A DNA stretch of 64,000 bases from Candidatus Woesebacteria bacterium (GCA_050123235.1 JASFHL010000006.1:1707-65706); one strand, 5' to 3'; shown: positions 15,094-46,710, counted from the first letter of the stretch. Made by a program: numbers and translations. The notes: generated from the letters alone by a model not told the origin.

Positions 15094-16608
15094 TTAATTA
15101 GAGTTATTGAGCTGTTTAACTGCACCTATAAATAAAATGTCATTATTATCTTTATTTAAAATTAAGAAAACAAAAGCTTTATTTACCTCCAACTCAAAAG
15201 CTTGATCAGTTTTAAATTCTTTGGTCGATGCTCCTAAAACCTGTTCCATTTCGGCATCAGTGACAGCAGTATTATCTGCTCCAGCTTCATCTATCTCTAT
15301 CAAGCTTTGGTGCATGACATTAGTCAAGGCTAGCTTTTTATCAGTCAGTTTTTTAAAATCCGCTTTTGAAGAAAAAGCTAGCTTAAGTCCAAGGGTTTCC
15401 AGAGCTTCTTTTAATTCTGTTTGATAACTGATATTAAATTTTGGTAAAGAAAAACTACCTTCTGTCTTAGCAAAATTTTCTAGCCAAGTATCTAAATTAC
15501 TTTGATTCAATTCAGAAAGAAAATCTTCTAGAGTATTTTTAGGTAAAAAGATATAAAGATTGAGATTTTTGTTTTTACCTAAAGGCAAAGCAACTGCCTG
15601 AAAAGCAGAGCTATCCAAATACATAAAGTCTTCTCTATACTGATTCATAAATGGAATCTTCTGACTTGAACCATCAACAGCAGTAAAATCTTTCTCTTGA
15701 TTAAGCTTTTTATCAAAACCATAAGTCCACAAGCCCTTAAAGGCAACAAGATTAGCCACATAAACTTGAGTGTCAGTTGCAGCTTGCACCTCTAGCTGAC
15801 TAGCATTTTCAGCTCCTAAACTTTCTTTTCTCCAGGCATCAATAGTTTTAACAGCATTTGGTCCAGCAAAATCAAGATTTTCAGCTTTAGCACCATAATA
15901 TTGTCTATTTGCTTCCAAAAACTCAGCCTTGAAATCAGCACCTTGCTGTGCCCAAACCGCATTAGCCAAATTTATTTTTATCTCTGGATCAGCGTTTTGA
16001 ATAAAGGCGATCAACTTAGCACTACCTTGATTAAGCTGAGTTAAGTCCATGCCTTTGATATTCAATCCTTCAGCAATTTCATCTTGAGTTTGATTGTTAG
16101 CACCGTTATTGAGCATTGAGAGAACCAGTGCGATGCTAGAAGGAGAAATAAAAACATTTTGATCTTGTTTTAAGGTAAGAACTTTAAAAAGATTAAGACC
16201 AAAAGAATTAAAAGCCAAGGGGAGATCACGAGTCTCTTGGTATTGTTTTTTATCATAAGTCACTTCTTTGGGTGTCGGCAAAACCGGAGGAATAGCTACA
16301 CTTTTATCAACTTGCTTACTTTTCCAGTCTTGATAGACATTCCAAGCTGCGAAGCAAAGAATAGCTAGTACAGCTAATAAAGCTACTATAGATATTAACT
16401 TGAAGACTGTTGGCTGTTGATCATTCTGTTGATTTATTTTTGCTTTCAAATCTGAGGCTTGAGGAGGTGGTTGAGTAGGGGGGCTAGGATCAGCTACAGG
16501 AAAAGTTTGATCTACATTATCATTGACAGCACTCATAGTTGGTGGAAGCTGACTTTGCTTAGCTACAGGCTGTTGTTTGGCATTAAAAACTGTATTTTCT
16601 TCTGACAT
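15094..16608 (-). CDS. membrane-anchored serpin-domain protein
   Basis: Pro/Gln-rich N-terminus plus one TM helix, then a serpin core (NLVAFKGLW; hinge EAGADNTAVTDA; C-terminal FVFLILNKDNNDILFIGAV). Confidence 0.7.
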   Translation of the reverse strand: MSEENTVFNAKQQPVAKQSQLPPTMSAVNDNVDQTFPVADPSPPTQPPPQASDLKAKINQQNDQQPTVFKLISIVALLAVLAILCFAAWNVYQDWKSKQVDKSVAIPPVLPTPKEVTYDKKQYQETRDLPLAFNSFGLNLFKVLTLKQDQNVFISPSSIALVLSMLNNGANNQTQDEIAEGLNIKGMDLTQLNQGSAKLIAFIQNADPEIKINLANAVWAQQGADFKAEFLEANRQYYGAKAENLDFAGPNAVKTIDAWRKESLGAENASQLEVQAATDTQVYVANLVAFKGLWTYGFDKKLNQEKDFTAVDGSSQKIPFMNQYREDFMYLDSSAFQAVALPLGKNKNLNLYIFLPKNTLEDFLSELNQSNLDTWLENFAKTEGSFSLPKFNISYQTELKEALETLGLKLAFSSKADFKKLTDKKLALTNVMHQSLIEIDEAGADNTAVTDAEMEQVLGASTKEFKTDQAFELEVNKAFVFLILNKDNNDILFIGAVKQLNNSN

Positions 16609-28319: not shown

Positions 28320-28787
28320 ATGAGCAAAGCCCGATCCCGCCTTAGATTGAAACAAAAAAAAAGAACCACCACTAGAGCTGGTTCTAGGTTAAAAAAAATT
28401 AATAAAAAAAGAATATCAATAGATGCATCGATTTTTAAACGATATATACAGCATCTACCCACACTATTTGTATCTTTGCCTTTTTTTTATGCTAGTGGCT
28501 ATATTTTGACAAAAATCTATCCTAGTGAAATCAAAAATTTATTGCTCAGTAATGCCTATTTGCCATTACAAATAACTGTTTTTTTAGCTAACTTTTTCTT
28601 TTTTAGTTTTTTAACTCTGAAAACTAGAAGAGGCTTATTAGTTAGCCTCTGCATCAGTACTTTTTTATTTTTAAAATTGGAAAAAGTAATCATTGATTAC
28701 ATTTTAGTTTCATCTATTTTGTTATTTTTTGTTATAATTGAATTAATTTTAACTTACTTAGAAAAAAATAATGCAAACTTCAAGTAA
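28320..28787 (+). CDS. hypothetical membrane protein with basic N-terminus
   Basis: ORF with several TM helices. Confidence 0.35.
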   Translation: MSKARSRLRLKQKKRTTTRAGSRLKKINKKRISIDASIFKRYIQHLPTLFVSLPFFYASGYILTKIYPSEIKNLLLSNAYLPLQITVFLANFFFFSFLTLKTRRGLLVSLCISTFLFLKLEKVIIDYILVSSILLFFVIIELILTYLEKNNANFK

Positions 28788-29133
28788 AAAACTCGCAAGG
28801 CAAACTAAAACTGAAATCTCAAGTCAATTAATTTCCCTAATCTCTGATCTCCAACACCCAGCAGAAATTGAACAATTTATTCAAGACTTTTTTACCGAAA
28901 CTGAAATTATAGTTTTTGCCAAAAGACTATCAATTGCTTATCTACTCTCTCAAGGCAAGTCCTATCAAGAAATCAAGGATGAGCTTAAAGTTTCCAGTGC
29001 CACCATCTCAGCTGTAGCAGAAATTAAAGATAAAAAAGGCATTAAACTAGCTATGAAAAAAATAAAAGCAGATCAAAAATATCAGCAGCAGGCTGAGAAG
29101 ATTTGGAGGGTGGTAAAAAAGTTTAGGAATTAA
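28771..29133 (+). CDS. TrpR-like YerC/YecD family DNA-binding protein
   Basis: AKRLSIAYLLSQGKSYQEIKDELKVSSATISAV helix-turn-helix, typical of the YerC/YecD family. Confidence 0.55.
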   Translation: MQTSSKKLARQTKTEISSQLISLISDLQHPAEIEQFIQDFFTETEIIVFAKRLSIAYLLSQGKSYQEIKDELKVSSATISAVAEIKDKKGIKLAMKKIKADQKYQQQAEKIWRVVKKFRN

Positions 29134-29195
29134 GGTTTAGGATTACAGAGATATAGATAATAAAATCACAAAAAAAACAAAGATATAGTAATTTA

Positions 29196-29357
29196 TTACT
29201 GCCAAGGATTTTCATCATTTACAGGTACACTGAGAATGACATAGCCGCAATAATTACATTTTTTACCATTTTCTATCTGCTGCATATTTCCAATCTCACA
29301 TCGAGGACAGTTTCCTGATTTTTCTGTAGTTGGTTCCTCTTCTTTTCTAGTAATCAT
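29196..29357 (-). CDS. unannotated small zinc-ribbon protein (53 aa)
   Basis: Translation MITRKEEEPTTEKSGNCPRCEIGNMQQIENGKKCNYCGYVILSVPVNDENPWQ contains a CPRC...CNYC pair. Confidence 0.35.
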   Translation of the reverse strand: MITRKEEEPTTEKSGNCPRCEIGNMQQIENGKKCNYCGYVILSVPVNDENPWQ

Positions 29358-29477
29358 TTTGAAATCCTTTTAAAAATTTATTAATCAGTCTAATTATAGC
29401 AAATTAGCTTAATTTTTCAAAAAAGATAAAATTTTGCTATCAGTTTGCACAAAAATAAAACTACAGCCAAAACAAAG

Positions 29478-29505
29478 CTGACTATTCCTTCAAAATTGCT
29501 ATAAT
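29478..29505 (+). promoter_or_regulatory. sigma70-like promoter for metG (CTGACT-N16-TATAAT), -10 only 6 nt from ATG, implying a leaderless mRNA
   Basis: Read directly from the sequence upstream of the 29512 ATG. Confidence 0.35.
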
Positions 29506-29511
29506 ACTCCC

Positions 29512-30987
29512 ATGTCTGATCAATATTTCTATCTCACCACCACCTTACCGTATGTCAATGCTTCACCACATATTGGTTTTGGTTTAGAAATTACTGAAGC
29601 TGATGTGATTGCCAGATATATGATGATGAAACTTGGTGAAAGAAATGTGTTTTTCAATACTGGGACTGATGAACATGGGCAAAAAATCTATCAAAAAGCA
29701 ATGGAGGCAAAATTAGATCCTCAAAAATATTGTGATCAATATGCAGCTAAATTCGCTGATCTAAAAAAACAGCTCAATCTTAAATACAATCATTTTATTA
29801 GAACCACTGAGCAGCATCACGTTAAAGCTGCTCAAGAGTTTTGGCGTCGTTGTCAAAAAAATGCTGATATTTACAAAAAACTTTATAAAATAAAATACTG
29901 TGTTGGCTGTGAGTTAGAAAAAACTGACAGTGAGCTGCTTGATGGTAAATGCCAGTTACACCCTAATCGTGACTTAGAAATTAGAGAAGAGGAAAATTAT
30001 TTTTTTAGATTTTCAAAATATCAACAAGCTTTATTAGATCTTTATCAACAACAACCTCATTTTGTCAAACCAGTAAGCAAGATGAAAGAAATTATTAGTT
30101 TTGTAAAACAAGGTCTGCAAGACTTCAGTATTTCTAGATTAAAATCAAAAATGCCTTGGGGCATCCCAGTACCAGGAGATAAAGAACATGTGATGTATGT
30201 TTGGTTCGATGCCTTGATTAACTATATTTCTACTATTGGCTGGCCAGATGATACTGATAGTTTTAGAAAATATTGGCCAGGTTTGCCAGAATCAGAAACA
30301 CTAGCACCAGAAAAAATTTCTTGCATTCAACTAGCTGGTAAAGATAATCTTCGCCAGCAATCGGCCATGTGGCAAGCAATGTTACTCTCAGCTGGCTTGC
30401 CAACTACCCAGCAAATTTTAATTAATGGCTTTATTAGCATTGATGGTCAAAAAATGAGTAAATCTTTGGGTAATGTCATCTCCCCAAAACAAATGGTGGA
30501 GCGTTATGGGACTGATGCCACTAGATATCTTTTAATTTCATTAGGTGCTTTTAGCAGTGATATGGATGTTAATTGGGATAAGTTTGATAACAAATACACT
30601 GCTGATTTGACAAATGGCTTAGGTAACTTATGTTCCAGAGTGGCTAAGATGTGTGAGAAGGCGGGAATCGGATCAGTGGAGGCAAAAATCAAACTTAACG
30701 CTAATTATGAACAGGCTATGACTAATTTTGAACTTAATGATGCTCTAAGTGAAACTATGCTTTTAATTAGTAAAGAAGATCAATTTCTCAGTGAAGCTAA
30801 GCCATGGCAATTAGCGGGTGAAGATCAGGCCTTAATATTAGCTAATTCTGCTACTAATATCCTCACTATCGCTCATCATCTCCAGCCTTTTATGCCAGAA
30901 ACAGCTCAAAAAATCTTAGATCACTTTAACAAGAAAAAAATAGTTGCACTTAAAGCACTTTTTCCTAGATTAAAGCAATCTAAATAA
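29512..30987 (+). CDS. metG: methionine--tRNA ligase
   Basis: HIGF (HIGH-class) and KMSKSLGN motifs. Zn-knuckle cysteines present. Confidence 0.9.
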   Translation: MSDQYFYLTTTLPYVNASPHIGFGLEITEADVIARYMMMKLGERNVFFNTGTDEHGQKIYQKAMEAKLDPQKYCDQYAAKFADLKKQLNLKYNHFIRTTEQHHVKAAQEFWRRCQKNADIYKKLYKIKYCVGCELEKTDSELLDGKCQLHPNRDLEIREEENYFFRFSKYQQALLDLYQQQPHFVKPVSKMKEIISFVKQGLQDFSISRLKSKMPWGIPVPGDKEHVMYVWFDALINYISTIGWPDDTDSFRKYWPGLPESETLAPEKISCIQLAGKDNLRQQSAMWQAMLLSAGLPTTQQILINGFISIDGQKMSKSLGNVISPKQMVERYGTDATRYLLISLGAFSSDMDVNWDKFDNKYTADLTNGLGNLCSRVAKMCEKAGIGSVEAKIKLNANYEQAMTNFELNDALSETMLLISKEDQFLSEAKPWQLAGEDQALILANSATNILTIAHHLQPFMPETAQKILDHFNKKKIVALKALFPRLKQSK

Positions 30988-31820
30988 TGCAAATTATTGA
31001 TACTCACTGCCACTACAACTTAGAACCATTGTATTCTGGTCAAGTTGCTCATTTTAAACTAAACCCCGACCATGCTCTAAGAAAAATGACTTGGCAAGAT
31101 CACTGGCGAAAAGCTAAAAAAAAAGGCGTAGTTAAATCTATTGTAGTTGGATCTGATCTTAATTCTAGTGACAAGGCTCTTGAAATCGCCAGCCAAGATA
31201 AAAATCTATATGCTGCCATTGGGCTTCACCCCCACGAGGCCAGCCTAGAGAGGCAAATTGATTTGGATCAAAAATTAAAAAAAATGGTTCTTAATTCTAA
31301 TGTAATTGCTATTGGTGAAACTGGGCTAGATTATTTTCATTTACAAAAAAATAGGACAAAAATTATTAAAAAGCAAGAAGATTTATTTATCAAACAAATT
31401 GAACTAGCTAATGAATTAAAACTCTCTCTAATTATTCATTGTCGCGATAGAGAAAAAAAGGCTTATCAAGATTTACTAGCCATTCTCAAAGCTCATACTC
31501 CTGAAAAAAGCTTTATCCTTCATTGTATTTCTGGATCATTAGATTATATTAAACAAGCTCTATCAATGGGCGCTTATTTGGGTGTAGCAGCTAATGTGAC
31601 TTACAAAAATGCAAACTCAATTAGAGAAATTGTCAAATATAGCCCCAATGATCGTTTATTAATAGAAACAGATGCTCCATATTTAGCACCTGAAAAATTT
31701 AGAGCCCAAGTGTGCGAGCCATGGATGATTGTTGAAACAGCTAAATTCTTACAAATTGAGTTTAAAATTGAGCCAGAGCAACTTTATAGTAATTCTATTA
31801 AGGCGTTCAGTTTAGTTTGA
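30987..31820 (+). CDS. tatD: TatD family metal-dependent hydrolase/DNase
   Basis: IDTHCH N-terminus and GETGLDY motif. Conserved metG-tatD synteny. Confidence 0.85.
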   Translation: MQIIDTHCHYNLEPLYSGQVAHFKLNPDHALRKMTWQDHWRKAKKKGVVKSIVVGSDLNSSDKALEIASQDKNLYAAIGLHPHEASLERQIDLDQKLKKMVLNSNVIAIGETGLDYFHLQKNRTKIIKKQEDLFIKQIELANELKLSLIIHCRDREKKAYQDLLAILKAHTPEKSFILHCISGSLDYIKQALSMGAYLGVAANVTYKNANSIREIVKYSPNDRLLIETDAPYLAPEKFRAQVCEPWMIVETAKFLQIEFKIEPEQLYSNSIKAFSLV

Positions 31821-31916: not shown

Positions 31917-33413
31917 ATGATTAAACGATATTTCCGCCGTCATCCGATCCGCACTCAACGCGCATTAGAAATCATACCAGGATTTTTTTCTTGGTCTTTA
32001 ATTTTATTTCCTATCTGGGGATCATTCCTTATTCCCACTGTTGTAGCATATTATGTGATCACTTTTGCTGTTTATTGGCTTTATCGCTCTGCTATCTTAG
32101 CTATTTTATCAATCATTGCTCATTTTAAAATTCAAGCTTCCAAAAAATTTGATTGGATTGCTGATCTTAAACAGAGTTATCCTAAAACTTGGGATAGTAT
32201 TCAGCATCTAATTATTATTCCTACTTACCGAGAACCAGAAAGTACTTTAGAAAAAACTTTGGATGCTCTTACCCGACAGTCTTATCCTCGGAAAAATATC
32301 CATATTATGATTTCGTTTGAAGAAAGAGAAGGAGCTGAAGGTAAGGACAAAGCAAAATATCTTAAAAACAAGTTTAAAAACAAATTTGGCAATTTGTGGA
32401 CTACTTTTCATCCTGATATCAAAGGGGAAGTAAAAGGAAAATCATCTAATACCTGTTGGGGTGCTAAAAGAGCTAAAGAATTGTTGATTGATAAAGCAAA
32501 ATTTCCAATTGAAAAAACCACCATTACCAGTGAAGATGCAGATGCTCGTTTCCATCATCATTATTTTGCTAATCTAAGCTATGAATTCTTATCACAAAAA
32601 AACCCACATAATAAAGTCTGGCAAGGAGGCATTGTTTTTTACAATAATATCTGGCAAGTTCCAGCTCCAATCCGGGTGATGGCTTCAATTTTCTCAGTTA
32701 CCCAAATTTATATTTTGATGAGAAAAGATCGTTTGATTAATTTTTCCACCTATTCTACTAGCCTCAAACACGTAGTGGAAATTGGTTATTGGGATACCGA
32801 TGTTATTCCCGAAGATTACCGCTTCTTTTTCAAATCTTATTTTGCCAAAAAAGGCCAATTTGATGTTGAACCGATCTTTTTACCAATCAATGCTGATGCA
32901 GCTGAAGCTAAAGGCACTTTCAGAGCTTTTAAAAATCAATATGAACAGCTTAAACGTTGGGCTTGGGGAGTAAGCGATGATGCTTATATAATTAGGCAGT
33001 ATATTTTAACTGAAGGTATTCCTTTTTGGGATAAAACTGTCAGAGTTCTAAAAGTAATTGAAGATCACTTTTTATGGCCAGTCAATTGGTTTGCCATTAC
33101 TATCTCAGCAACTCTGCCACCATTACTGAATGATAAGTTTAATCGCACCATTTTGGGTAAAACTCTACCACAGGTAACTTCAGCTTTACTCACAATGTCT
33201 TTGCTCTCTATGGTGGTAGTCTTTTTGATAGATGCTAGGAACAGACCTCCTCGACCCAACAAATACAACCCACTTTCCTATATTTTTCAACCTTTAGAAT
33301 TTTTAATGTTGCCAATTATTGGCTTTTTCTTTTCTGCATTGCCAGGGCTTGATGCTCACACTAGGTTGATGTTGGGAAAATATATTGAATATAAAGTGAC
33401 GGAGAAGGTTTAA
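31917..33413 (+). CDS. family-2 glycosyltransferase, polytopic membrane protein
   Basis: IIIPTYREPESTLEKTLDALTRQSYP GT-A motif; multiple TM helices. Confidence 0.6.
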   Translation: MIKRYFRRHPIRTQRALEIIPGFFSWSLILFPIWGSFLIPTVVAYYVITFAVYWLYRSAILAILSIIAHFKIQASKKFDWIADLKQSYPKTWDSIQHLIIIPTYREPESTLEKTLDALTRQSYPRKNIHIMISFEEREGAEGKDKAKYLKNKFKNKFGNLWTTFHPDIKGEVKGKSSNTCWGAKRAKELLIDKAKFPIEKTTITSEDADARFHHHYFANLSYEFLSQKNPHNKVWQGGIVFYNNIWQVPAPIRVMASIFSVTQIYILMRKDRLINFSTYSTSLKHVVEIGYWDTDVIPEDYRFFFKSYFAKKGQFDVEPIFLPINADAAEAKGTFRAFKNQYEQLKRWAWGVSDDAYIIRQYILTEGIPFWDKTVRVLKVIEDHFLWPVNWFAITISATLPPLLNDKFNRTILGKTLPQVTSALLTMSLLSMVVVFLIDARNRPPRPNKYNPLSYIFQPLEFLMLPIIGFFFSALPGLDAHTRLMLGKYIEYKVTEKV

Positions 33414-33514
33414 AAAATTGCCACTAAAGTTTTGATATGTAAAATAAGAAATTAAATCATTATTTTCTTCTAATTAATCTAGCAATCACAAACAAAAACA
33501 GCTAAAATGATTTT

Positions 33515-35185
33515 ATGCTCAAATTTTTGAAAAAAGTTGATAAGACTCTTGACAGAGAAATTCCTTTATTTTTATTAATACTACTTTTGATTATTTTACG
33601 ATTACCAAATTTTTTTGAACCTTATTGGTATGGCGATGAAGCTATTTATCTCACTATTGGTAATGCTCTGCGTTTTGGCGAAAAACTATATACGGATATT
33701 ATTGATCATAAAACTCCAATTATTTATTTTCTGGCAAAAGTACCTAATCAACTTAGTTTTAGATTTCTTAATCTTTTATGGACGGCTCTTGCTACGGTTT
33801 CTTTTTATTTTTTAGCAAAAAAAATATTTAAAAAAAAATCATTATCTTTTTTTAGCACTCTTATTTTTGTCCTGCTAACTAGTTTACCTTGGTTTGAAGG
33901 TTATATCCCTAATGGTGAGTTATTTGTAATTGGTTTTGTTATGGCTGGAGCATACTTACTTAGTAACACTAATTATTTCAATAATTTCCTTAAAGGCAAA
34001 ATAATTAAAACAAAACAACTTGTCCAATCAAAAAAATCAGCAAGTAAAAAAAATCAGCGATCTCTTTTCACTTTAATCAAAAACAAAAAAGAAGAATTAT
34101 TAATTTTTATAGCTGGCTGTTTTTTTGCTTTAGCTATTTTAACTAAAGTACCAGCTTTACTAGACTTTGCGGCTTTTATGGCAATTGCCTGGTTCAGTTT
34201 AGTAAATACTTTCTCTTTTTCACCAAAAAAACTTAAAAACTGGAAAAAACAACTCTTACCACAATTAAAAAAATTTTTCATTCTTCTAGCCGGAGTGCTC
34301 ACTCCTATTTTACTTTCAGTCATTTATTTTGCTAGCAAAGGCTCAGCTAAAGATTATTTAGATTTTGGTTTACTTTATAACTTTAGATATGCCAGCTCCT
34401 GGCAATTAAATTTTACTAACCCAGTGCTTATTTTTGCTTTTAGTTTAAAAGGCAAACTTATTTTACTCAGCTTATTGTTTTTCTTACTTAGTTTTGCTAA
34501 AAAATTAATCACTCCCAAAGCTCAACTTTTGATAGCTTGGTTTGCGCTGTCTCTGTTTGCCAGCCTTTTGTCAAATCGACCATATCCCCATTATTTTTTA
34601 CAAATCATGCCAGCCTTTTCTTTACTAATTATTTATTTACTTTATTCTCTGCTCAAAATCTATCAGACAAAGAAAAAATCATTAGTAAATATTGTGGAAA
34701 TTAGCTTAGCTAGTTTATTAATCTTAATTGCTTTTGCTAGCATGAAGCTGCTGAAATTAGGTCTCCATCCTGTAAAAACTTATTATCAAAATTTCTATTT
34801 ATATGCCACTAGAAAACTTTCAGAAGAAGATTATTATCAAAGCTTTAACAATTTGATGAGAGACAATTACAAAGCTAGCAAAATTATTCAAGACAAAGCT
34901 GAGAAAAGAATTTTCATTTGGGGTAACAACCCAATGCTCTATGCTCATTCAAAAACTATTCCTACTGGTCGCTTTACGGTAGCCTTTCACATTAAAGATT
35001 TTAACGCTTACCGTGAAACCATGGATGGAATTAAAAAACATCAACCTAAGATCATAGTTGTCATGAAAGACGAACAAGACCCTTTTCCAGAATTTTATCG
35101 CTATCTATACCGTTTCTACAAACTTAAGTATAATTTAGAGTATATGTTTATTTTTGAAAAAGTAGATCAACCGGAATCAAAATGA
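33515..35185 (+). CDS. GT-C fold glycosyltransferase (ArnT/PMT-like), polytopic membrane protein
   Basis: About 12 predicted TM helices. YWYGDEAIY first-loop acidic motif typical of GT-C/ArnT-like enzymes. Confidence 0.5.
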   Translation: MLKFLKKVDKTLDREIPLFLLILLLIILRLPNFFEPYWYGDEAIYLTIGNALRFGEKLYTDIIDHKTPIIYFLAKVPNQLSFRFLNLLWTALATVSFYFLAKKIFKKKSLSFFSTLIFVLLTSLPWFEGYIPNGELFVIGFVMAGAYLLSNTNYFNNFLKGKIIKTKQLVQSKKSASKKNQRSLFTLIKNKKEELLIFIAGCFFALAILTKVPALLDFAAFMAIAWFSLVNTFSFSPKKLKNWKKQLLPQLKKFFILLAGVLTPILLSVIYFASKGSAKDYLDFGLLYNFRYASSWQLNFTNPVLIFAFSLKGKLILLSLLFFLLSFAKKLITPKAQLLIAWFALSLFASLLSNRPYPHYFLQIMPAFSLLIIYLLYSLLKIYQTKKKSLVNIVEISLASLLILIAFASMKLLKLGLHPVKTYYQNFYLYATRKLSEEDYYQSFNNLMRDNYKASKIIQDKAEKRIFIWGNNPMLYAHSKTIPTGRFTVAFHIKDFNAYRETMDGIKKHQPKIIVVMKDEQDPFPEFYRYLYRFYKLKYNLEYMFIFEKVDQPESK

Positions 35186-35553
35186 GCTCAAAAAACCACG
35201 TGAGAAAAAACAGACTAGCAAAAACTATTCCTCAATTTATTAAAACACCAATCCTCCTTAGTTTTTCTTTAACTATTATTTTGCTAATAGTTTGTTTAGC
35301 TTTTTATCCTAAATTACAAGCAGAAATTCCATTTTTCTATTCAGTGGCAGAACCCCAGAAACAGCTAGCTCATAAAAATTTTATTTTTCTTTTTCCAAGT
35401 CTATCACTTATTTTTAATTTAGTGGCTTTAATTTTAATCAAAGTTTTTTCCCAATTAGAAAAAATAATTGTCAAGTTTTTCGTTTTTATGAATCTAGTTT
35501 TCCAGATTATAATAGCTATGTTAGTATTTAGATTAATCTTAATTATCGGCTAG
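35182..35553 (+). CDS. small 3-4-TM membrane protein (possibly GtrA-like flippase accessory)
   Basis: Size and topology only. Overlaps neighbours. Confidence 0.35.
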   Translation: MSSKNHVRKNRLAKTIPQFIKTPILLSFSLTIILLIVCLAFYPKLQAEIPFFYSVAEPQKQLAHKNFIFLFPSLSLIFNLVALILIKVFSQLEKIIVKFFVFMNLVFQIIIAMLVFRLILIIG

Positions 35554-35555
35554 CT

Positions 35556-36623
35556 ATGATAGCTTTTTTACTCAGCACCGTTATTGCTCTTTTTCTAGCT
35601 CCAGTGATTATCAAAATTTATAGCAGGCAAGATTGGATCGATGATCCCCGAAAAAGTAAACATGTTAAAAAAACTCATCAAGAACCTGTCCCAAGAGGAG
35701 GAGGAATAGTTATTTTTATAGCTATTTTGATTGCTGCATTGCTACTTTTACAAATTGATAAATATTTAATTGCCATTCTTCTTGGAGCATTAATTTTGAC
35801 TATTGTTGGCACTTTAGATGATATTTTGAATTTACATCCTGTGATTAGATTAGTTGCTGGTTTGATAGCTGCTTTACTGGTAGTCGGATCTGGTATTGGT
35901 ATTGCTTATGTTAGCCATCCTTTTACAGAAGGAGTGATTCATCTTAACCAAGCTCAAATTAGTCTTTTCCTTTTTAATAAAGTACGAACAATCTGGATTT
36001 TAGCTGATATTTTTGCCTTAATCTTTATTGTCTGGAACATGAATATTATTAATTGGTCAAAAGGAGTGGATGGACAATTACCTGGCTTTGTGAGCATGGC
36101 TGCGATTTTTATTGGAATCCTTTCTTACCGTTTTGTTGATGATCCTACTCAATTTAACACTGCCAATCTCAGTTTTATTGTGGCAGGTGCATTTTTTGGT
36201 TTTTTATTTTGGAATTGGTATCCACAAAAAATAATGCCAGGTTATGGTGCAGGTTCTCTAGCTGGCTATTTTCTCAGCATTCTCAGTATTTTATCTGGTG
36301 CTAAAGTTGCTACTACTTTAATGGTTCTTGCTATCCCTACTGCAGACGGTATTTTTACTATTTTAAGAAGAATCCTAGCTGGTAAATCACCTTTATGGGG
36401 AGATCGTGGTCATTTACATCACAAGCTGATGGATGTTCTTGGTTGGGGACGACGCAGAATAGCTGTCTTTTACTGGATGAGCAGCTTATTAATGGGTATA
36501 CTATCACTATATTTACAAACAAAGGCTAAGATCTTTGCTATTTTACTGGCATTAACTTTTGTTTTTAGCTTTCATATTTGGGTTAAAATTAAAAGTAAAA
36601 ATAAACAGTATTTAATTAATTAA
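35556..36623 (+). CDS. polyprenyl-phosphate sugar-1-phosphate transferase (WecA/MraY family)
   Basis: LDDILNLHP, NMNIINWSKGVDGQ and GDRGHLHHKL motifs. Confidence 0.75.
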   Translation: MIAFLLSTVIALFLAPVIIKIYSRQDWIDDPRKSKHVKKTHQEPVPRGGGIVIFIAILIAALLLLQIDKYLIAILLGALILTIVGTLDDILNLHPVIRLVAGLIAALLVVGSGIGIAYVSHPFTEGVIHLNQAQISLFLFNKVRTIWILADIFALIFIVWNMNIINWSKGVDGQLPGFVSMAAIFIGILSYRFVDDPTQFNTANLSFIVAGAFFGFLFWNWYPQKIMPGYGAGSLAGYFLSILSILSGAKVATTLMVLAIPTADGIFTILRRILAGKSPLWGDRGHLHHKLMDVLGWGRRRIAVFYWMSSLLMGILSLYLQTKAKIFAILLALTFVFSFHIWVKIKSKNKQYLIN

Positions 36624-36630
36624 AATCAAT

Positions 36631-37596
36631 ATGAAGTTCCAAAAATTTCACATTCTATATCTGATTCTTAAATCAGCTCGTCCTAGACAATGGATCAAAA
36701 ATGTAGCTCTTTTTGCACCTTTGGTCTTTTCTGGCTTTTTCTTTTATACCCCAGAAGATGGTATACCTTACTTTTTCACCATTCTTTATGCTTCAATAAT
36801 TTTTTGTATTCTCACTTCAGCTATTTATATTATCAATGACATTATTGATTTAAAAGCAGATCGCAAACATCCTTTTAAGAAAAAAAGACCAATCGCTTCA
36901 GGTGAATTACCAGTGCCAGTGGCTAGTTTTACTGCTATTTCTAGTTTAATTCTGGTGCTTTTTTTATCAATGGGCTTACCGTTTTTCTTTAAATTAATGA
37001 TTTTCTTTTATTTCATCCTGCAATTACTTTATGCCAAAAAAACCAAGCACATTCCTATCTTGGATGTGATTTCTATAGCCACTGGCTTTCTAATCAGAAT
37101 TTATGCTGGAGCTGTGGTGGTGAGTAACTTGCATATGAGTGTTTGGTTTTTATTAACAGTAGTTTCAGCATCACTGTTTTTGGCAGTAGGTAAACGACAA
37201 AGTGAACGAACTCTTCTTAGCAAAGAAAATTTGGGCTACACCAGGAAAACTCTTAGACATTATAGCCAGCGATTATTAGATCAGTATACTGGCATGTTTG
37301 CTAATGCCACTTGGCTAAGTTATTCTTTGTTTGCTTTCCAAAATAATACATCAAATATGACCCCTGCTTATGAGAGGTTTCCCGAATTATATGTGCTCCT
37401 ACCTAGAGCTTTGCAATCACAAAAACTATTGATGTTGACTATTCCTTTTGTGATTTTTGGAGTGATGCGTTATTTACAACTGATTTATGAAGAAAATCAT
37501 GGTGAATCTCCAGAATTAGTTCTACTAAGAGATAAAACTTTATTAACTACTGTTTTCAGTTTTGGCATTGCTGTGATGCTAATTATTTATTTATGA
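36631..37596 (+). CDS. UbiA-family decaprenyl-phosphate phosphoribosyltransferase-like prenyltransferase
   Basis: WIKNVALFAPLVFSG and NDIIDLKAD (NDxxDxxxD) motifs, as in DPPR synthases. Confidence 0.65.
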   Translation: MKFQKFHILYLILKSARPRQWIKNVALFAPLVFSGFFFYTPEDGIPYFFTILYASIIFCILTSAIYIINDIIDLKADRKHPFKKKRPIASGELPVPVASFTAISSLILVLFLSMGLPFFFKLMIFFYFILQLLYAKKTKHIPILDVISIATGFLIRIYAGAVVVSNLHMSVWFLLTVVSASLFLAVGKRQSERTLLSKENLGYTRKTLRHYSQRLLDQYTGMFANATWLSYSLFAFQNNTSNMTPAYERFPELYVLLPRALQSQKLLMLTIPFVIFGVMRYLQLIYEENHGESPELVLLRDKTLLTTVFSFGIAVMLIIYL

Positions 37597-37782
37597 AAAG
37601 ATGAATTGTCTGGTAAAAAACCTCAACCAAGTTCTATAAGCTACTAGCAATACTCCTTAAAACCATCATTTTGATACAATTAATTTTTAATATATAATAA
37701 GTATGTATTAATGAATGTTTTTTTAATTAATCAATACAAACTATTAATAAAAACTGCCAGCCCCCAAAAAATATAAATTTTT

Positions 37783-38679
37783 ATGAAAGAAAGAGGTTTA
37801 GAAATAAAAACCCTATTTGATTGTTTAGAGTATATTCAAGAAGCAAATCTTGAGAGAATTCAGAGCTTAGATCAAGCTGTTGCTTGGTTATTAAGCATCG
37901 CATTTAAATATATAAGCCATATTGAAAAAACTGATGAAAAAATAGCCAAAGAAATGATTCTCCATAAAATAGTTCATACTGGAGAAACAATGGAAGCCAT
38001 GTATGATATTTTATCTAGAGAAGATGCTTTAGATGAATATTTTGAAGCAGCTATGCTAGCTATTATTAGTCATGATGTGGGCAGATTTCCTCAAGTTGCA
38101 AAACACAAGATTATTTCTGATGATAAATCAAGATTTGACCATGCTCAAGCAAGCCATGCAATTCTGACAGGGGAATGGTCAGAACTTATAGCCCCTGTTC
38201 CTTTTGCCAATCATCCAGCTTTTGATGACATAGCTACAGCAATTTTAGAACATAGTAAGTTTAAACCAGCCGTGGAGAGCTTATTAGTCGCATTAGTGAG
38301 AGATGCTGATAAATTAGCTATCTTAAGAGGAATCGTTGAATTCAGTGATCGATTCAAAATGCTTAGGCCGCAATTAACAGAGGCTAGTGAAAGTATAAGT
38401 AGAACTGTAATTGAAAGCTTTTTGGATCCACAATGTGCCACAGTAGTAAACGGAGATGTAGTGACTATAGCTGATGATTTGATAGCAAAATTGGCATTTA
38501 TTTTTGATATTAATTTGCAAGCTACTAAAGATATTTTAGTTGAAGAAGGAATTCTAGATCAAATCATAGCTAAAATTATTGAAGCAGCAGATTTAGATGA
38601 ACTAATAGCAAACAGAATTAGACAAAGAGTAGCTGATTGGAAGAAAGCAGAGCTGCCAACGAAAGACTGGGAGAGTTAA
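37783..38679 (+). CDS. HD-domain phosphohydrolase-like protein
   Basis: H...HDVGR and distal D/H motifs. Confidence 0.45.
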   Translation: MKERGLEIKTLFDCLEYIQEANLERIQSLDQAVAWLLSIAFKYISHIEKTDEKIAKEMILHKIVHTGETMEAMYDILSREDALDEYFEAAMLAIISHDVGRFPQVAKHKIISDDKSRFDHAQASHAILTGEWSELIAPVPFANHPAFDDIATAILEHSKFKPAVESLLVALVRDADKLAILRGIVEFSDRFKMLRPQLTEASESISRTVIESFLDPQCATVVNGDVVTIADDLIAKLAFIFDINLQATKDILVEEGILDQIIAKIIEAADLDELIANRIRQRVADWKKAELPTKDWES

Positions 38680-39656: not shown

Positions 39657-40538
39657 TTAGCAAAAATTTGCTTGGATAACAGCCTTCAAATCCTGTTTCA
39701 GCTCTGGCTTATCTTTAGCCACCATCAGATTAGCCTTTAACCAGCCTGATAAATTACCTCCATCTAAATAAGTCCCTTGAGGGGTAAATACTAGCACTTC
39801 ATCTGTTTTAATTAAATTTAGCAAAGAATCAGTGATCAAAACTTCTTTAACTCTAGCATTGGGTTTTTGTTGTTCAATAATATTAAAAATTTGTGGAGTA
39901 AAAACATATTTACTAATATTAACTAAATTTGATGGTGCTTGACCCGAAGCTGGTTTTTCTATCAAAGCAGTTAGATAATTAAAACCTTCTCTGTTTTCAA
40001 CTTTAGCTACCCCATAGCGATGTAAATCTTTTTCTTTTTTTTCAATACAAGTCATTAAAGCTGCTGTATGACTCATTTTAAAACAATTAATCATTCTTGA
40101 AGTTTCAGAAGAGCCATCAGCATTATAAATAAAATCATCACCCATAAAAACTAAAAAAGCATCTTCATTTTTAACATGTTCTTTAGCTAATAAAACAGGT
40201 ATGGCTGTACCGTATTCATCATCGTCACTTTGTTTAACAAAATGGAACTTTGCTTTTTAATGAAGTGTTTTAATTTTTTTATAAAGATGCAGTTTTTGTC
40301 TTTTTTTTAAATAATGAAACAAACGTTTATTTTCTCTATAAAAATGCAGAATTTGATAATTATGTTTACTAATCACAAAAATAATTTCTTCAATGCCTGC
40401 TTTAACACAATCTTCTACCACATAATCGATCAAAGGCCTATTCAAAACTGGTAACATTTCTTTCTGAATGCTTTTAGTAATAGGGAGCATCCTGCTACCA
40501 AAACCAGCTGCTGCTATGACTGCTTTTTTAATTTTCAT
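39657..40538 (-). pseudogene. UTP--glucose-1-phosphate uridylyltransferase (GalU)-like gene interrupted by one in-frame TAA (plus 40257-40259)
   Basis: N-terminal part KAVIAAAGFGSRMLPITKSIQKEMLPV and C-terminal part GDDFIY... are in the same frame. The 111 nt between them also encode GalU-like sequence (GTAIPVLLAKEHVKNEDAFLVF). Confidence 0.6.
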
Positions 40539-42043: not shown

Positions 42044-43813
42044 TTATTTCACTGTCACACTCTTAGCAAGATTTCTTGGTTTATCAGGATCAGCTCCTAA
42101 ACCAATTGCTAAAAAGTAAGCTAAAAGTTGTCCAACGATCACATTGGCGATCACAGTTAGCTCTTGCCAATCTGGCGTTTTAATCAGCTTGTCAAATTCT
42201 GTGGCTTTGAAAGAACTAATACCAATAGTTCTAGCTCCCCTAGCCTTAAGTTCAGTGACACTCGAAAGTAATTCTGCTTTTAAATGATCATTGCTAGCTA
42301 AAGCAAAACAGGGAGTTCCATTTTTAACCAAACTAATCACTCCATGCTTCAGCTCACTAGCAGCGAAAGCTTCTGCATGAAGATAACTGCTTTCTTTGAT
42401 CTTTAAGGCAAATTCTAAAGCACCAGCATAATTTTCCTTTTTGCCAATCACGTAAATGTGATCTTCATCTAGAAGTGTCTTAGCTAGCTTGATCACTTTT
42501 TTTTCTAATTCTTCAGTTAACCATTTTTTAAGATCTTGTCCGACTTTTTTAAGCCTTTTTTGAGCTGCAGGGTATTGACCAGCTACAGCTTGACTTAATA
42601 AATAAATAGTAGCCAATTGGGCTGTGAAAGCTTTGGTGGAAACTACAGCAATTTCTGGTCCAGCACCAACTGATAAAACATAATCAGCTAATCTCTCTAA
42701 AGTTGATCCTCTAGCATTGATCACTGCCAATAATTTAGCTCCTTTTTCTTTGGCTCGTCTACTGGCAATTAAGGTGTCCGCTGTTTCACCGCTTTGAGAA
42801 ATAGCAATCACTAAAGTGTTTTTATCACAAAATTGAGCAAAGCTTTCAAATTCGTGGGCATGAAAGGCTAGGGCTTCGACTCCTACTTGAGCAAAATAAT
42901 AAGTTGAAAGCAGACAACAATGATAAGCAGTGCCACAGGCTAATAAGATTACTTTTTTATTTTTCTTGATTTGTTTGGCAATGCTTAATATTTCTTCTTT
43001 ATTAATCAAAGCTGTTCTGGGAATTGTTTCTTTTTGCTCAAAGATTTCTTTAATTAAAAAATGAGGAAAATTACCTTTTTCAGCAGTTTCTTCATCCCAA
43101 TCAATTTGCTCAATGCGGAGCTTTTTTTCTTTGCCTGAATCGAGTGAATAGAGTTTAATGCCAGTTTCTGATAAAACAATGCCTTCTCTGTCTTTTAGAT
43201 AAATTACTCTATTTGTGTGCTTCAATAAAGCAGTCACGTCAGAAGCTAAATAGTATCTATCTTGCCCTACTCCGACTATTAATGGCGAACCATCTCTACA
43301 GGCGATGATTTGTTTTGATTCTATATCAAAAATAACGATGGCATTGGAACCAGCAATAATATTGAAACTCTCAAAAACTGCCTTAACTACATCCAAAGTC
43401 TTCTTTTTTTCTTCAATCAAGTGAGCAATTACTTCAGTATCTGTTTCTGATTGAAAATGGTGTTTTTTCTTCTTAAGTTGAGATTTTAGTTCTTGGTAGT
43501 TTTCAACAATACCATTGTGTACAACAGCCACCTTTCCCGAGCCATCTAAATGCGGATGAGCATTTTCATCAGTTACTCCACCATGTGTAGCCCAACGGGT
43601 ATGACCAATTGCCATTGAACTAGCTGGTAAAGAAACCCTTGCCTCGCCAATTTTGCCAACATGTTTTTCAAGTTTTATTTTGTCTGACTTACTTGGTTTA
43701 ACTGCCACACCCCATGAATCATAACCACGATATTCGAGTTTTTTCAAACCTTCCAAAACAGTCTCAGCCGCTTGTTTTTTTTCATCATTGATTACAGCAA
43801 AAATTCCACACAT
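42044..43813 (-). CDS. glmS: glutamine--fructose-6-phosphate aminotransferase
   Basis: MCGIF N-terminal nucleophile; two SIS domains. Confidence 0.95.
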   Translation of the reverse strand: MCGIFAVINDEKKQAAETVLEGLKKLEYRGYDSWGVAVKPSKSDKIKLEKHVGKIGEARVSLPASSMAIGHTRWATHGGVTDENAHPHLDGSGKVAVVHNGIVENYQELKSQLKKKKHHFQSETDTEVIAHLIEEKKKTLDVVKAVFESFNIIAGSNAIVIFDIESKQIIACRDGSPLIVGVGQDRYYLASDVTALLKHTNRVIYLKDREGIVLSETGIKLYSLDSGKEKKLRIEQIDWDEETAEKGNFPHFLIKEIFEQKETIPRTALINKEEILSIAKQIKKNKKVILLACGTAYHCCLLSTYYFAQVGVEALAFHAHEFESFAQFCDKNTLVIAISQSGETADTLIASRRAKEKGAKLLAVINARGSTLERLADYVLSVGAGPEIAVVSTKAFTAQLATIYLLSQAVAGQYPAAQKRLKKVGQDLKKWLTEELEKKVIKLAKTLLDEDHIYVIGKKENYAGALEFALKIKESSYLHAEAFAASELKHGVISLVKNGTPCFALASNDHLKAELLSSVTELKARGARTIGISSFKATEFDKLIKTPDWQELTVIANVIVGQLLAYFLAIGLGADPDKPRNLAKSVTVK

Positions 43814-43815
43814 AG

Positions 43816-45021
43816 TTATTGATTAATATTTTTTTTAATTATTGAACCTGGCTCTATCACTGCCTCATTTTTAATTATCACTCCGGGCATGGTACTAGAC
43901 TGAACTCCAACTTTAACATTATGCCCCATGATCACTCCTAAATTTTTTCTTTTGCTATCTGTTTTTTTAGCTTTAACAACAGTTTTGACAGTAGCTCTAT
44001 CTAATCTCCTATTGGCAGAAATAAAACCTGCCCCTATTCTCACTCCCTGACCCAAGACAGAATCTCCAATAAAACCACTATGACAATGAGCATCAGTCAT
44101 CAAAATGCTATTAGCCACATCAGCAAAGCGTTGAACTTCTGCTCTATCTTCTAGTACAGAACCTTTACGCAAGATGCAATGTTGACCAACTACAGCCTTT
44201 TTACCTATATAAGCCGGACCTTCAACAATAGCATAATCAGCAACAATTGCTTCAGGACCAATATAGACATCACCCTTAATCAAGGCTGTCGGAGATATTT
44301 TAGCTTGTTTAGAGATTGAAAATTTGAACTTTTGAAATAGCTCATTTTTAAGATCCAATAAATGCCAAGGGTATTTAAGAGAAGCTGGAGTTTTTTCAAA
44401 CTTAGCAACCTTAACTTCATGTTTTTGCATATAGTTATTCAAAGCAGTTTCCAAAAGATACTCTTCGGCTGGCAAAGATGACATGTAATTTAGAAAATCT
44501 CTATTTAATAGATAAATGCCAATAATTCGATACGGATTTTTTATTTTCTGCTGTGGTTTTTCAATCAAAGAAATTGCTTTAACTCCCTCAATAGAGACAA
44601 CACCATAAATTTTTGGATTGTCAGTTGCTGTAGCAGCCAAAGCGGAAGAACTATTCAAATTAATCATTTTTTGTAAATAATCAGCTGCATTGACTTGACT
44701 GGCATTCATCACAAAAAAATGCTCATCGAGTAAATCTTTGGCAGCCAAAATAGCGTCAGCCATTCCTCGAGCTTCTTTTTGAATAGCAATTTCCAGTTTT
44801 TCAAAATTTTGAACATAATCTTTTAACAAAGATTTAGTCCTTGAGTTTGACTGATTTACTACTACTACCACTTTTTTTATTTTAGCTTCGATTAAAGAAT
44901 CTAAAGTCCAATAAAGTATTGGTTTGCCCATTAACACAGTTTCAACTTTGCTTTCTTTTATTGAAAAAGGAAAAAATCTGGAAGATTTGCCGGCGGCTAA
45001 TAAAACTGCTTGCTTTGGCAT
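43816..45021 (-). CDS. bifunctional sugar-1-phosphate nucleotidyltransferase / left-handed-beta-helix acetyltransferase (GlmU-like)
   Basis: LAAGKSSRF nucleotidyltransferase motif and C-terminal hexapeptide repeats. Adjacent to glmS. Confidence 0.6.
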   Translation of the reverse strand: MPKQAVLLAAGKSSRFFPFSIKESKVETVLMGKPILYWTLDSLIEAKIKKVVVVVNQSNSRTKSLLKDYVQNFEKLEIAIQKEARGMADAILAAKDLLDEHFFVMNASQVNAADYLQKMINLNSSSALAATATDNPKIYGVVSIEGVKAISLIEKPQQKIKNPYRIIGIYLLNRDFLNYMSSLPAEEYLLETALNNYMQKHEVKVAKFEKTPASLKYPWHLLDLKNELFQKFKFSISKQAKISPTALIKGDVYIGPEAIVADYAIVEGPAYIGKKAVVGQHCILRKGSVLEDRAEVQRFADVANSILMTDAHCHSGFIGDSVLGQGVRIGAGFISANRRLDRATVKTVVKAKKTDSKRKNLGVIMGHNVKVGVQSSTMPGVIIKNEAVIEPGSIIKKNINQ

Positions 45022-45037
45022 AAAAATTTAATTTTTT

Positions 45038-45694
45038 TTATAAAAAATTATTCAATTGCATCATATCATGAATACAATAATTAGCTTTTTTTGATTTTTT
45101 GGAAAATAAAACTCCAATACCTCCTTGCTCCTGACCAATTTGACAATCTTTTTCCCAATTATCTCCCACGTAAAGACACTCCTCAGCTTTAAGTTTAAAT
45201 TTTTTCCAAGCCCGCTCATAATATTTGATGCTTGGTTTCATCACTTTCATCTCATCAGAATTAAATATTAAATCAAATCTATCTTTTAAATTAAACTTAT
45301 TCAATTTGAGATCAGTTAGTCTTTGACTGCCCTCAGTGATGAGTATTTTTAAGACAGACAAATCTTGTTCCAAAAACCGCCTGCTTCCTTTAGTAAGACT
45401 GAGCTTTGCTGCCACTTCATCTTCAAGTATTCTAACTGCATCAGGAATAAAACTTTTATCTAAGTTTAACTTACCCAGCGTTTGAGCAAGCGAATATTCA
45501 AAAGAGCGTTCTTTTGGGTTTTTAGAAAATTTAAGTTTTTTGACAGTTACGCGCCATTGTTTGAAAATTATTTCTTCATCAAAAGATAGTTTTTGAGCAA
45601 GAAAATCAATTGCTTTTTTATAGGCAGCTTGGGAAATATTAGCTGTATTGACTAGAGTATTATCTAAATCAAAAAAAATTGCTTTAATTCTCAT
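45038..45694 (-). CDS. HAD-superfamily hydrolase
   Basis: FFDLDNTLV motif I; downstream GDN motif. Confidence 0.7.
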   Translation of the reverse strand: MRIKAIFFDLDNTLVNTANISQAAYKKAIDFLAQKLSFDEEIIFKQWRVTVKKLKFSKNPKERSFEYSLAQTLGKLNLDKSFIPDAVRILEDEVAAKLSLTKGSRRFLEQDLSVLKILITEGSQRLTDLKLNKFNLKDRFDLIFNSDEMKVMKPSIKYYERAWKKFKLKAEECLYVGDNWEKDCQIGQEQGGIGVLFSKKSKKANYCIHDMMQLNNFL

Positions 45695-46710
45695 GGGTTT
45701 ACGATTTTGACTAATACTTTAGCTAATTTATAGGCATCATGACGTAATAAAGTTCTAATAACAGTATCACTTTTATTTTGTTGAATCAGAGACTTAGAAA
45801 GTAACTTTGCTTTGATAATCTGGCTTTGCTCCAAATTAACTAAATCATCTCTTATCGGAAACTCTTTGCAGCGAGCATATCTTGCAGCTAAATCTGCTGG
45901 CATCTGCTCAGAATTTAAAATAACTATATCTGGTCTTCTGCCACAGTATCTGATCACTTCTGTTAGGTGATCCTTGGCAGTCATTTTATGTGTCTGCGCA
46001 TAATGCGTCATCAGATTGACAATATAAACAAACTTTCCTTTATTCTCTTTCAGAGCTGCTTTGAAACCTTTGGGCAAAGCATTAACCAAAAGACTAGCAT
46101 ATAAATCACCTGGTCCTAAAATAATCATATCTGCCGATTCGATGGCTGCAGCTGCTTTTTTATAAATCTGACTCTTTGGTTCAAGTTCTATTTTAGTAAT
46201 TCTCTTACCTCCATAACGACTATCATCTAAAGTGTGTTCGCCAATATTAATAGTCCCATCTTGGTAATGAATCTTCAAACTAGTGTCTTTTTCTGTAATC
46301 GGATAAACTCGGCCATTAATTCTAAAGATACGAGCAGCTGTTTCTATTGCTTGAGCAGGAGAATTACTTAAATATTCAAGAGCAGTTAAGATCAGATTGC
46401 CCAGATTATGTCCTTTAAGACCATTGCCTTTATTAAAACGATAAAGTAATAAGTTTCTGATATCTTCCTGATATCGGCCATCAGCTAAAGCGGCCAAACA
46501 CTGTCTCAAATCACCGACTGCTAAAAAACCAAATTCATCACGCAATCTGCCAGTCGATCCACCTGAATCAAAAACCGCCACAATGGCAGTTAGATCAAGC
46601 TTTGCCTCATTCTTAAGCCCTGAGAGAACCACTGAAGTGCCTGTTCCTCCACCAATGACTACTACTTTCTTTTTACGAACTTTTTTTACCATACCAGACA
46701 AGTATAGCAA
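45691..46710 (-). CDS. YvcK / gluconeogenesis-factor (CofD-like, UPF0052) family protein
   Basis: VVIGGGTGTSVVLSGLK and FDSGGSTGRLRDEFG motifs. Confidence 0.75.
   Translation of the reverse strand: MLYLSGMVKKVRKKKVVVIGGGTGTSVVLSGLKNEAKLDLTAIVAVFDSGGSTGRLRDEFGFLAVGDLRQCLAALADGRYQEDIRNLLLYRFNKGNGLKGHNLGNLILTALEYLSNSPAQAIETAARIFRINGRVYPITEKDTSLKIHYQDGTINIGEHTLDDSRYGGKRITKIELEPKSQIYKKAAAAIESADMIILGPGDLYASLLVNALPKGFKAALKENKGKFVYIVNLMTHYAQTHKMTAKDHLTEVIRYCGRRPDIVILNSEQMPADLAARYARCKEFPIRDDLVNLEQSQIIKAKLLSKSLIQQNKSDTVIRTLLRHDAYKLAKVLVKIVNP

Follow-up and report, generated by a model that had tools for sequence, protein, structure and literature searches.

What does a cluster of membrane glycosyltransferase genes that ends in a gene of the UbiA family do for a bacterium of the candidate phyla radiation (CPR)? 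The question is raised by a locus in a 64,000-nt stretch of low-GC DNA (0.337), here called the window, from a metagenome-assembled genome of Candidatus Woesebacteria (Patescibacteria/CPR). Identical copies of the window proteins occur on contigs from NCBI, JGI and Logan that reach 83 kb in length. To our knowledge, almost nothing has been established experimentally about the CPR cell envelope. A preliminary description, made from the DNA alone, proposed six co-directional genes, and all six are present on the plus strand with identical boundaries (table 1): a membrane GT2 glycosyltransferase, a GT-C glycosyltransferase, a small membrane protein, a polyprenyl-phosphate N-acetylhexosamine-1-phosphate transferase (PNPT) superfamily member (here GT4), a UbiA-family enzyme and an HD-domain protein. 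Every family assignment was correct at the superfamily level. We present strong evidence that the UbiA-family protein is a polyprenyl-phosphate 5-phosphoribosyltransferase (PPPRS) and, with moderate confidence, favour a role for the first five genes as an operon that makes a lipid-carried ribose and then uses it to build or decorate an envelope polymer.

The UbiA-family protein scored 208.9 bits against the NCBIfam equivalog model for decaprenylphosphoryl-5-phosphoribose (DPPR) synthase (NF008978; cut-off 207) and 200.6 and 149.5 bits against sister DPPR-synthase models. Models for aromatic, heme-O, quinone and geranylgeranylglyceryl phosphate (GGGP) prenyltransferases all gave ≤46 bits (best 46.4), with those of the 4-hydroxybenzoate (4-HB), heme-O and MenA types at ≤30 bits. 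By these scores the protein groups with phosphoribosyltransferases, apart from the prenyltransferases of the menaquinone, heme-O and 4-HB pathways, the grouping on which the preliminary description had staked its proposal. The protein also matched the cryo-EM structure of Mycobacterium tuberculosis Rv3806c (PDB 8j8j, E = 3.4e-34). The contacts that Rv3806c makes with Mg, ribose, the 5-phosphate and pyrophosphate have been listed (PMC10994848), and we carried these residues onto the window protein through the 8j8j alignment. R22, K28, Y70, N73, D77, K87, R90, Q135, Y138 and K143 of Rv3806c are identical in the window protein, as R17, K23, Y66, N69, D73, K83, R86, Q131, Y134 and K139, respectively, and the NDxxDxxxD motif comprises N69, D70, D73 and D77. 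The sole listed contact that differs is Y157, which is F153 here; Phe is also found at this position in some mycobacteria (PMC10994848). Of these contacts, K28, Y70 and Q135 bind the phosphoribose and occupy positions at which other UbiA enzymes show no conservation (PMC10994848).

These features extend to the relatives of the protein. Across 82 UbiA homologues the Mg/diphosphate motif and the Lys/Arg cluster (N69, D70, D73, D77, R17, K83, R86, K139 and Y134) are invariant (81–82 of 82), Q131 is kept in 75, and position 153 is Phe or Tyr in all 82. A model for the HAD-fused form (NF006088) matched only through its UbiA part (model positions 194–434 of 482), and the UbiA open reading frames (ORFs) of all related loci are approximately 310–345 aa long. 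The sequence therefore points strongly to a PPPRS/DPPR synthase without a fused HAD phosphatase. In public annotation the gene is named ‘UbiA prenyltransferase family protein’ (NCBI) or ‘4-hydroxybenzoate polyprenyltransferase’ (JGI), and the phosphoribosyltransferase function is absent.

The genomic setting of this enzyme is widely conserved. A pattern scan and tblastn of GTDB species representatives gave more than 599 stretches, and a relative is encoded in at least 546 of these; we retrieved the best 80 loci and counted presence in 67 with an upstream flank of 5.2 kb or more. The first five genes occur in the same order and on the same strand in dozens of species-level genomes, with UbiA identities of 44–72%, an arrangement far beyond chance. 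GT4 lies directly upstream of UbiA in all 67 loci, and an ORF of 110–130 aa lies directly upstream of GT4 in 63; the GT2 gene is present in 62 and the GT-C gene in 47. BLAST mapping of the window proteins gave the order (TrpR)-MetRS-TatD-GT2-GT-C-small-GT4-UbiA almost everywhere. The loci with informative record names come from Microgenomates-type Patescibacteria (Woese-, Levy-, Davies-, Gottesman-, Pace- and Cerribacteria). Many others (among them L005, L007, L008, L012, L018 and L030) are titled Pseudomonadales, Gammaproteobacteria or Vitreimonas, labels that look wrong. Upstream, the genes for RmuC, a 155-aa membrane protein, a Trp-repressor-like protein, MetRS and TatD (window 28320–31820) are syntenic with the operon clade-wide, and these genomes preserve gene order over long distances to an unusual degree.

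Within the window, gaps of 96 nt (TatD to GT2) and 101 nt (GT2 to GT-C) give way to much tighter spacing: 14 nt between GT-C and the small protein (or a 4-nt overlap with the 123-aa start), 2 nt from there to GT4 and 7 nt from GT4 to UbiA. In locus L003 the GT4 and UbiA ORFs share a 14-nt overlap. The operon suggested previously is thus supported by the spacing of the last four core genes but not for the HD gene, which lies behind a 186-nt gap. An Rfam scan across the region gave no match.

What follows UbiA varies between lineages. The closest relatives have a PMT-family GT-C gene 3–8 nt downstream, a PMT-type enzyme being present in 14 of the 67 loci, while the gene directly after UbiA encodes a PTPS_related/AftD-like membrane protein in L014 and a Wzy_C protein in L082. 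No remnant of the PMT-type gene was found in the window by tblastn (best E = 0.5). This repeated recruitment of different lipid-carrier-dependent enzymes beside UbiA is the best contextual evidence available and suggests that UbiA makes a lipid-linked donor. Throughout the Levy and Davies clades, UbiA is followed by a convergent gene for a 270–340-aa PEGA and SH3_3 protein of surface/wall-binding type, and then by GroEL.

For the GT-C and GT2 proteins, family assignments were settled only by structure prediction and fold search, as PDB searches with the GT-C (single sequence and 63-sequence profile) and with a GT2 profile yielded nothing significant. The GT-C model (pLDDT 91.5) falls in the ArnT/PMT/ALG-like fold class, with a small C-terminal α/β domain, and the YWYGDE sequence of the first outer loop (residues 37–42), including its DE motif, is invariant. 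Fold and acidic first-loop motif together uphold the earlier view of an ArnT/PMT-like GT-C enzyme beside UbiA. GT2 scored just below the cut-off for PF13632 (Glyco_trans_2_3; 25.6 bits against 27) and reached 25 bits, also below cut-off, with the NCBIfam PgaC/IcaA model in its C-terminal half. Its AlphaFold model (pLDDT 86.2) has two N-terminal and approximately four C-terminal helices with a GT-A domain between them, and the best Foldseek matches were the Chlorella virus and Xenopus hyaluronan synthases CvHAS and XlHAS1 and the cellulose synthase BcsA (E values 1e-9 to 5e-7). D207-x-D209 (EDAD at 206), E299-D300 (PEDY at 298) and Q344-x-x-R347-W348 (QLKRW) are invariant in 33 family members. 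Because of this HAS/BcsA fold match and the invariant DxD, ED and QxxRW motifs, the membrane GT2 of the preliminary description is more specifically predicted to be a HAS/BcsA-like processive synthase-translocase, and not a GtrB-like donor synthase.

The small protein had been described as having three to four transmembrane (TM) helices and as GtrA-like. Three hydrophobic helices are predicted, in the window protein and across its family, rather than the four of GtrA, and none of 52 family members matched GtrA (PF04138) at E ≤ 1. Four of the 52 gave weak matches to DUF1648, and a word-indexed homologue search returned only the query. The family carries a conserved motif after the first helix, LPPxxP(L/I)F(Y/N)(S/Q)LPWG, with one invariant Pro, in a loop that probably faces outward by the positive-inside rule. 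These sequence features identify it as a probable undescribed family, distinct from GtrA.

GT4 belongs to the PNPT superfamily (PF00953, 78.7 bits), and its profile matched MraY structures in the PDB (E = 6e-18) and human GPT (E = 0.003). Neither equivalog cut-off was reached, with 71.7 bits for WecA (TIGR02380; cut-off 326) and 59.7 bits for MraY (TIGR00445; cut-off 192). In the window protein and 31 homologues from loci L001–L068 we compared the catalytic positions. The DD pair (D88, D89), N166, D172 and HLHH (286–289) are kept. In the NxxNxxDGxDG motif, K169 stands at the site of the first DGxDG Asp, a site that is Lys in 26 of the 32 sequences and Asp in none. The equivalent of FMGDxGS reads (F/M)-P-G-(Y/F)-G, with Tyr or Phe at position 230 in all 32 and no acidic residue. 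These two positions correspond to D174 and D231 of Bacillus subtilis MraY, the latter equivalent to the Mg-binding catalytic D265 of the Aquifex aeolicus enzyme; both are essential (PMC5039524). GT4 thus appears, unexpectedly, to be a PNPT superfamily member with a rebuilt active site from which two MraY-essential aspartates are absent. The earlier ‘WecA-like’ label holds for the superfamily and not for the enzyme, given the score far below the WecA cut-off and the atypical active site. A housekeeping MraY was considered and rejected on its score and missing catalytic residues.

In the pathway that we favour, UbiA would transfer 5-phosphoribose from phosphoribosyl pyrophosphate (PRPP) to polyprenyl phosphate at the cytoplasmic face, giving polyprenyl-phospho-ribofuranose-5-phosphate, as comparison with Rv3806c indicates. 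The 5-phosphate would be removed by a phosphatase encoded away from the cluster, and the lipid-linked ribofuranose carried across to the outer leaflet; among the membrane components, only the conserved 3-TM protein has no other role assigned to it. GT-C would then hand the pentofuranose on to an acceptor outside the cytoplasm. The likeliest acceptor is the polysaccharide that the HAS/BcsA-like GT2 would extrude, a PNPT-primed glycan or both, and in sister lineages the second, PMT-type GT-C encoded after UbiA would perform the same transfer. Use of the UbiA product by GT-C is probable: UbiA is the only enzyme of the cluster able to make a polyprenyl-monophosphate sugar, and no GtrB/DPM1-type (PF00535) gene is present in the 64-kb window or conserved beside the related loci, which supports UbiA as the source of the donor. 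The HD gene is not required by this five-gene scheme.

Enzyme sets of this type are known, above all from the cell wall of M. tuberculosis. The three-component systems (Kelly et al., PNAS 2024, PMC11127046) comprise a PPPRS bearing a HAD phosphatase, a flippase of the MATE type and a GT-C enzyme, and were related in that study to the decaprenylphosphoryl arabinose pathway of mycobacteria and to the arabinosylation of Pseudomonas pilin. In Citrobacter, Pseudomonas and mycobacteria, PPPRS and GT-C enzymes together attach pentofuranoses on the extracytoplasmic side. In the survey of that study, arabinofuranose (Araf) systems carry DprE1/E2 homologues and xylofuranose (Xylf) systems an ORF13 epimerase. 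The annotation of the window includes no PAP2, HAD phosphoribose phosphatase (PRP) or DprE1/DprE2-like (FAD_binding_4/ALO, adh_short) gene, and none is a conserved neighbour in the related loci. The analogy with actinobacterial arabinan drawn in the preliminary description therefore fails in these elements. With no linked epimerase, ribofuranose is likelier than arabinofuranose, and the survey rule likewise predicts ribofuranose.

One close parallel is ORF12–15 of Citrobacter youngae O1/O2, where a UbiA-type, PRPP-using PPPRS is also clustered with GT-C and no DprE-type epimerase is present. Unlike that cluster, the operon has no HAD phosphoribose-phosphatase domain and no MATE flippase; it adds the HAS/BcsA-like synthase, the atypical PNPT and the undescribed 3-TM protein, and it lies in a housekeeping context beside MetRS-TatD in monoderm-like CPR hosts rather than in an O-antigen locus. 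The mycobacterial decaprenylphosphoryl arabinose (DPA)/arabinogalactan set (UbiA-type Rv3806c, Rv3807c, DprE1/E2, Rv3789, AftA/B/C/D, Emb, WecA and GlfT2) similarly places PNPT, GT2 and GT-C enzymes beside a DPPR synthase whose contacts are kept here, save F153 for Y157. D-arabinofuranosylation of pilin in Pseudomonas aeruginosa Pa5196/PA7 resembles our locus in its stand-alone PPPRS supplying a GT-C (there TfpW), and differs in having a separate phosphatase, DprE1/E2 homologues and a pilin target, features not found here (PMC11127046). The GtrA/GtrB/GtrC systems (CsbB/GtcA/YfhO) share the logic of a lipid-monophosphate sugar made inside, flipped and used outside by a GT-C enzyme, with a small membrane protein beside the GT-C; here, in contrast, the donor synthase is of the PRPP-using UbiA type, the GT2 is of the processive QxxRW type and the small protein has three TM helices and is not GtrA.

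What is known, then, is the PPPRS and GT-C core; the combination with a synthase, an atypical PNPT, a new 3-TM family and CPR hosts appears new, and the literature collection searched contained no paper linking Patescibacteria/CPR with DPPR-synthase chemistry. An operon that encodes a predicted PRPP-dependent lipid-ribose synthase and is kept, beside housekeeping genes, in hundreds of Microgenomates species leads us to expect that a surface glycan with pentofuranose (probably ribofuranose) belongs to the core features of the lineage. It would also extend the PPPRS and GT-C paradigm beyond Actinobacteria and Proteobacteria, and it includes PNPTs whose active site seems remodelled. As the known phosphatase, flippase and epimerase partners are not linked to the operon, at least two steps would need unrecognised proteins.

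Several observations weigh against the five-gene pathway. No phosphatase of either known type (fused HAD PRP or Rv3807c-type PAP2) is present in or near the cluster, no flippase of the GtrA, MATE or SMR type is found in the window or cluster, GtrA and MATE genes are not conserved neighbours in the related loci either, and the window yielded no PRPP synthetase. About 20 of the 67 loci lack GT-C in a Daviesbacteria-type variant, confirmed by family hidden Markov model. In this variant GT2 is approximately 590 aa long, some 90 aa of which form an N-terminal extension, and the other three genes (small protein, GT4 and UbiA) remain. This leaves four genes, those for GT2, the small protein, GT4 and UbiA, as the strictly conserved core. 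Since two MraY-essential residues are absent from GT4, its part in the pathway is weakened. The predicted fold of GT-C does not reveal its donor sugar, and mannosyl and 4-amino-4-deoxy-L-arabinose (Ara4N) transferases outrank arabinofuranosyltransferases in the fold search. Finally, MetRS and TatD are as syntenic as the operon itself, so order is kept in these genomes even without shared function.

Much of this would be expected if the genes were conserved neighbours without a shared pathway: UbiA would still make polyprenyl-P-ribose(-5-P), while GT-C used some other lipid donor, such as a polyprenyl-P-hexose, and GT2 and the PNPT served independent polymers. The equal synteny of MetRS and TatD, the loci that keep UbiA without GT-C and the nearest structural neighbours of GT-C all lean this way, and we regard this explanation as unlikely yet worth taking seriously. 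Set against it are the lack of a GtrB/DPM1-type polyprenyl-P-hexose synthase in the window, the different families of lipid-carrier-dependent enzymes found beside UbiA in different lineages and the tight or overlapping spacing of the core genes.

An improbable but more specific alternative is that the PNPT and PPPRS form a two-enzyme module, in which the PNPT would act on the 5-phosphate of polyprenyl-P-ribose-5-P and the HAS-like synthase would elongate and export a polymer from this primer. GT4 and UbiA are indeed an invariant pair (67 of 67), adjacent or overlapping, and were the 5-phosphate used rather than removed, the absence of a linked phosphatase would be explained. The Lys and Tyr/Phe residues at the two Asp sites essential in MraY (PMC5039524), with DD, N, D and HxHH retained, would be in keeping with this reading. 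The same substitutions would, however, equally fit an altered metal site with ordinary UDP-N-acetylhexosamine (HexNAc):polyprenyl-P activity, or a non-catalytic subunit, and the chemistry is without precedent. The Rv3807c phosphatase is reported to be dispensable in mycobacteria. A phosphatase-dead ORF15 still gives some ribofuranose addition (PMC11127046), so unlinked phosphatases can suffice. In a primer variant, to which we likewise give little credence, polyprenyl-P-ribose-5-P(-P)-HexNAc would be one possible product and the 3-TM protein a subunit of the HAS-like synthase, amounting to a Microgenomates-specific initiation of polysaccharide synthesis.

The preliminary description had gone further than the five-gene pathway, with the HD protein dephosphorylating a DPPR-like intermediate, the 123-aa protein as a GtrA-type flippase and the pentose perhaps epimerized. 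That HD protein is probably a member of the HD superfamily, as had been claimed: it scored 20.7 bits against PF01966, just below the cut-off of 22, but 45 of 49 distant relatives pass, H65, H97, D98 and D174 are invariant between it and its relatives, and its profile matched PDB 2pq7 (E = 3.5e-10). From its sequence it is plausibly a metal-dependent phosphohydrolase. It lies directly downstream of UbiA on the same strand, and one distant relative adjoins YfhO, PMT_2 and DUF2298 GT-C genes, which would suit the proposed role. Yet a phmmer search covering 10 kb to each side of UbiA in 84 related loci gave no homologue, even with the threshold at E < 10 (0 of 67 among loci with enough flank), and a word-indexed search of 5.8 billion proteins returned only the protein itself. 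A full HMMER scan gave relatives of at most 37% identity from the generic HD family. Of the neighbourhoods of five such relatives, one contig was too short and the other four were heterogeneous and unrelated, none with UbiA. In L028, L006 and L009, maf comes directly after UbiA, with GalU and GDH behind it, which is the window arrangement minus HD. Of the promoter-like matches in the 11-kb region, the best (11/12) falls in the 186-nt spacer before HD; terminator scans of the spacer found none, so transcripts may read through into HD. Because of the missing homologues and this gap with its promoter-like site, we place HD outside the conserved operon, as a lineage-specific insertion that separates UbiA from convergent maf (78 nt beyond HD).

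A DPPR-phosphatase role for HD thus cannot be general. With no GtrA match among the small proteins and no DprE1/E2-like gene in the window either, the full model is very improbable. Its broader idea of surface glycosylation dependent on polyprenyl-phospho-ribose or another pentose does survive in the pairing of PPPRS with GT-C and the operon-like spacing, shorn of the HD, GtrA and arabinan elements. That UbiA is instead an ordinary aromatic or quinone prenyltransferase, in a cluster unrelated to lipid-linked pentoses, is hardly credible: the NCBI and JGI names point that way, but the 4-HB, heme-O and MenA-type models reach at most 30 bits against 209 for DPPR synthase, and the phosphoribose contacts equivalent to K28, Y70 and Q135 of Rv3806c are kept here and throughout, or almost throughout, the 82 homologues.

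Table 1. Features of the locus and of related loci. Positions are those of the window unless a locus is named.
Feature	Position or loci	Strand	Remarks
GT2 gene	31917-33413	+	498 aa, ORF call
GT-C gene	33515-35185	+	556 aa, ORF call
Small membrane protein gene	35182-35553	+	123 aa; JGI start at 35200 gives 117 aa
GT4 (PNPT) gene	35556-36623	+	355 aa, ORF call
UbiA-family gene	36631-37596	+	321 aa, ORF call
Sigma-70-like promoter match TTGATA-16-TATAAT	37671-37698	+	11/12, consensus match only; UbiA-HD spacer
HD gene	37783-38679	+	298 aa, ORF call
PEGA + SH3_3 protein	loci L024-L084, e.g. L033 10935-11774	-	directly downstream of UbiA
Daviesbacteria-type loci	L034, L038, L039, L042, L046, L047, L049, L051, L055, L059, L063, L064, L070, L071, L073		

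Other genes of the window bear on sugar metabolism. Some 3–8 kb downstream of the cluster, at 42044–46710 on the minus strand, an operon encodes GlmS, a GlmU-like nucleotidylyltransferase/acetyltransferase, a generic HAD protein and YvcK, consistent with UDP-GlcNAc supply. The GlmU-like gene is of the archaeal type (TIGR03992, 290 bits with the cut-off at 292). Among the genes annotated there, a GlmM-type mutase was not seen, and the HAD protein might fill the sugar-phosphate step. We considered this HAD hydrolase (45038–45694) as the absent phosphatase and rejected it, as it is generic and TIGR02253-like, lies in the GlmS/YvcK operon and has no link to the cluster. A GalU-like gene (39657–40538, minus strand) has a single in-frame TAA at codon 94, where relatives have Glu (GAA to TAA). 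The remainder is in one frame and 60% identical to the intact 291-aa gene of L028, and the stop codon may be a fresh pseudogene mutation, a population variant or a sequencing error. Farther upstream, at 15094–16608 on the minus strand, the window encodes a 504-aa protein with a Serpin domain (PF00079), a family uncommon in bacteria.

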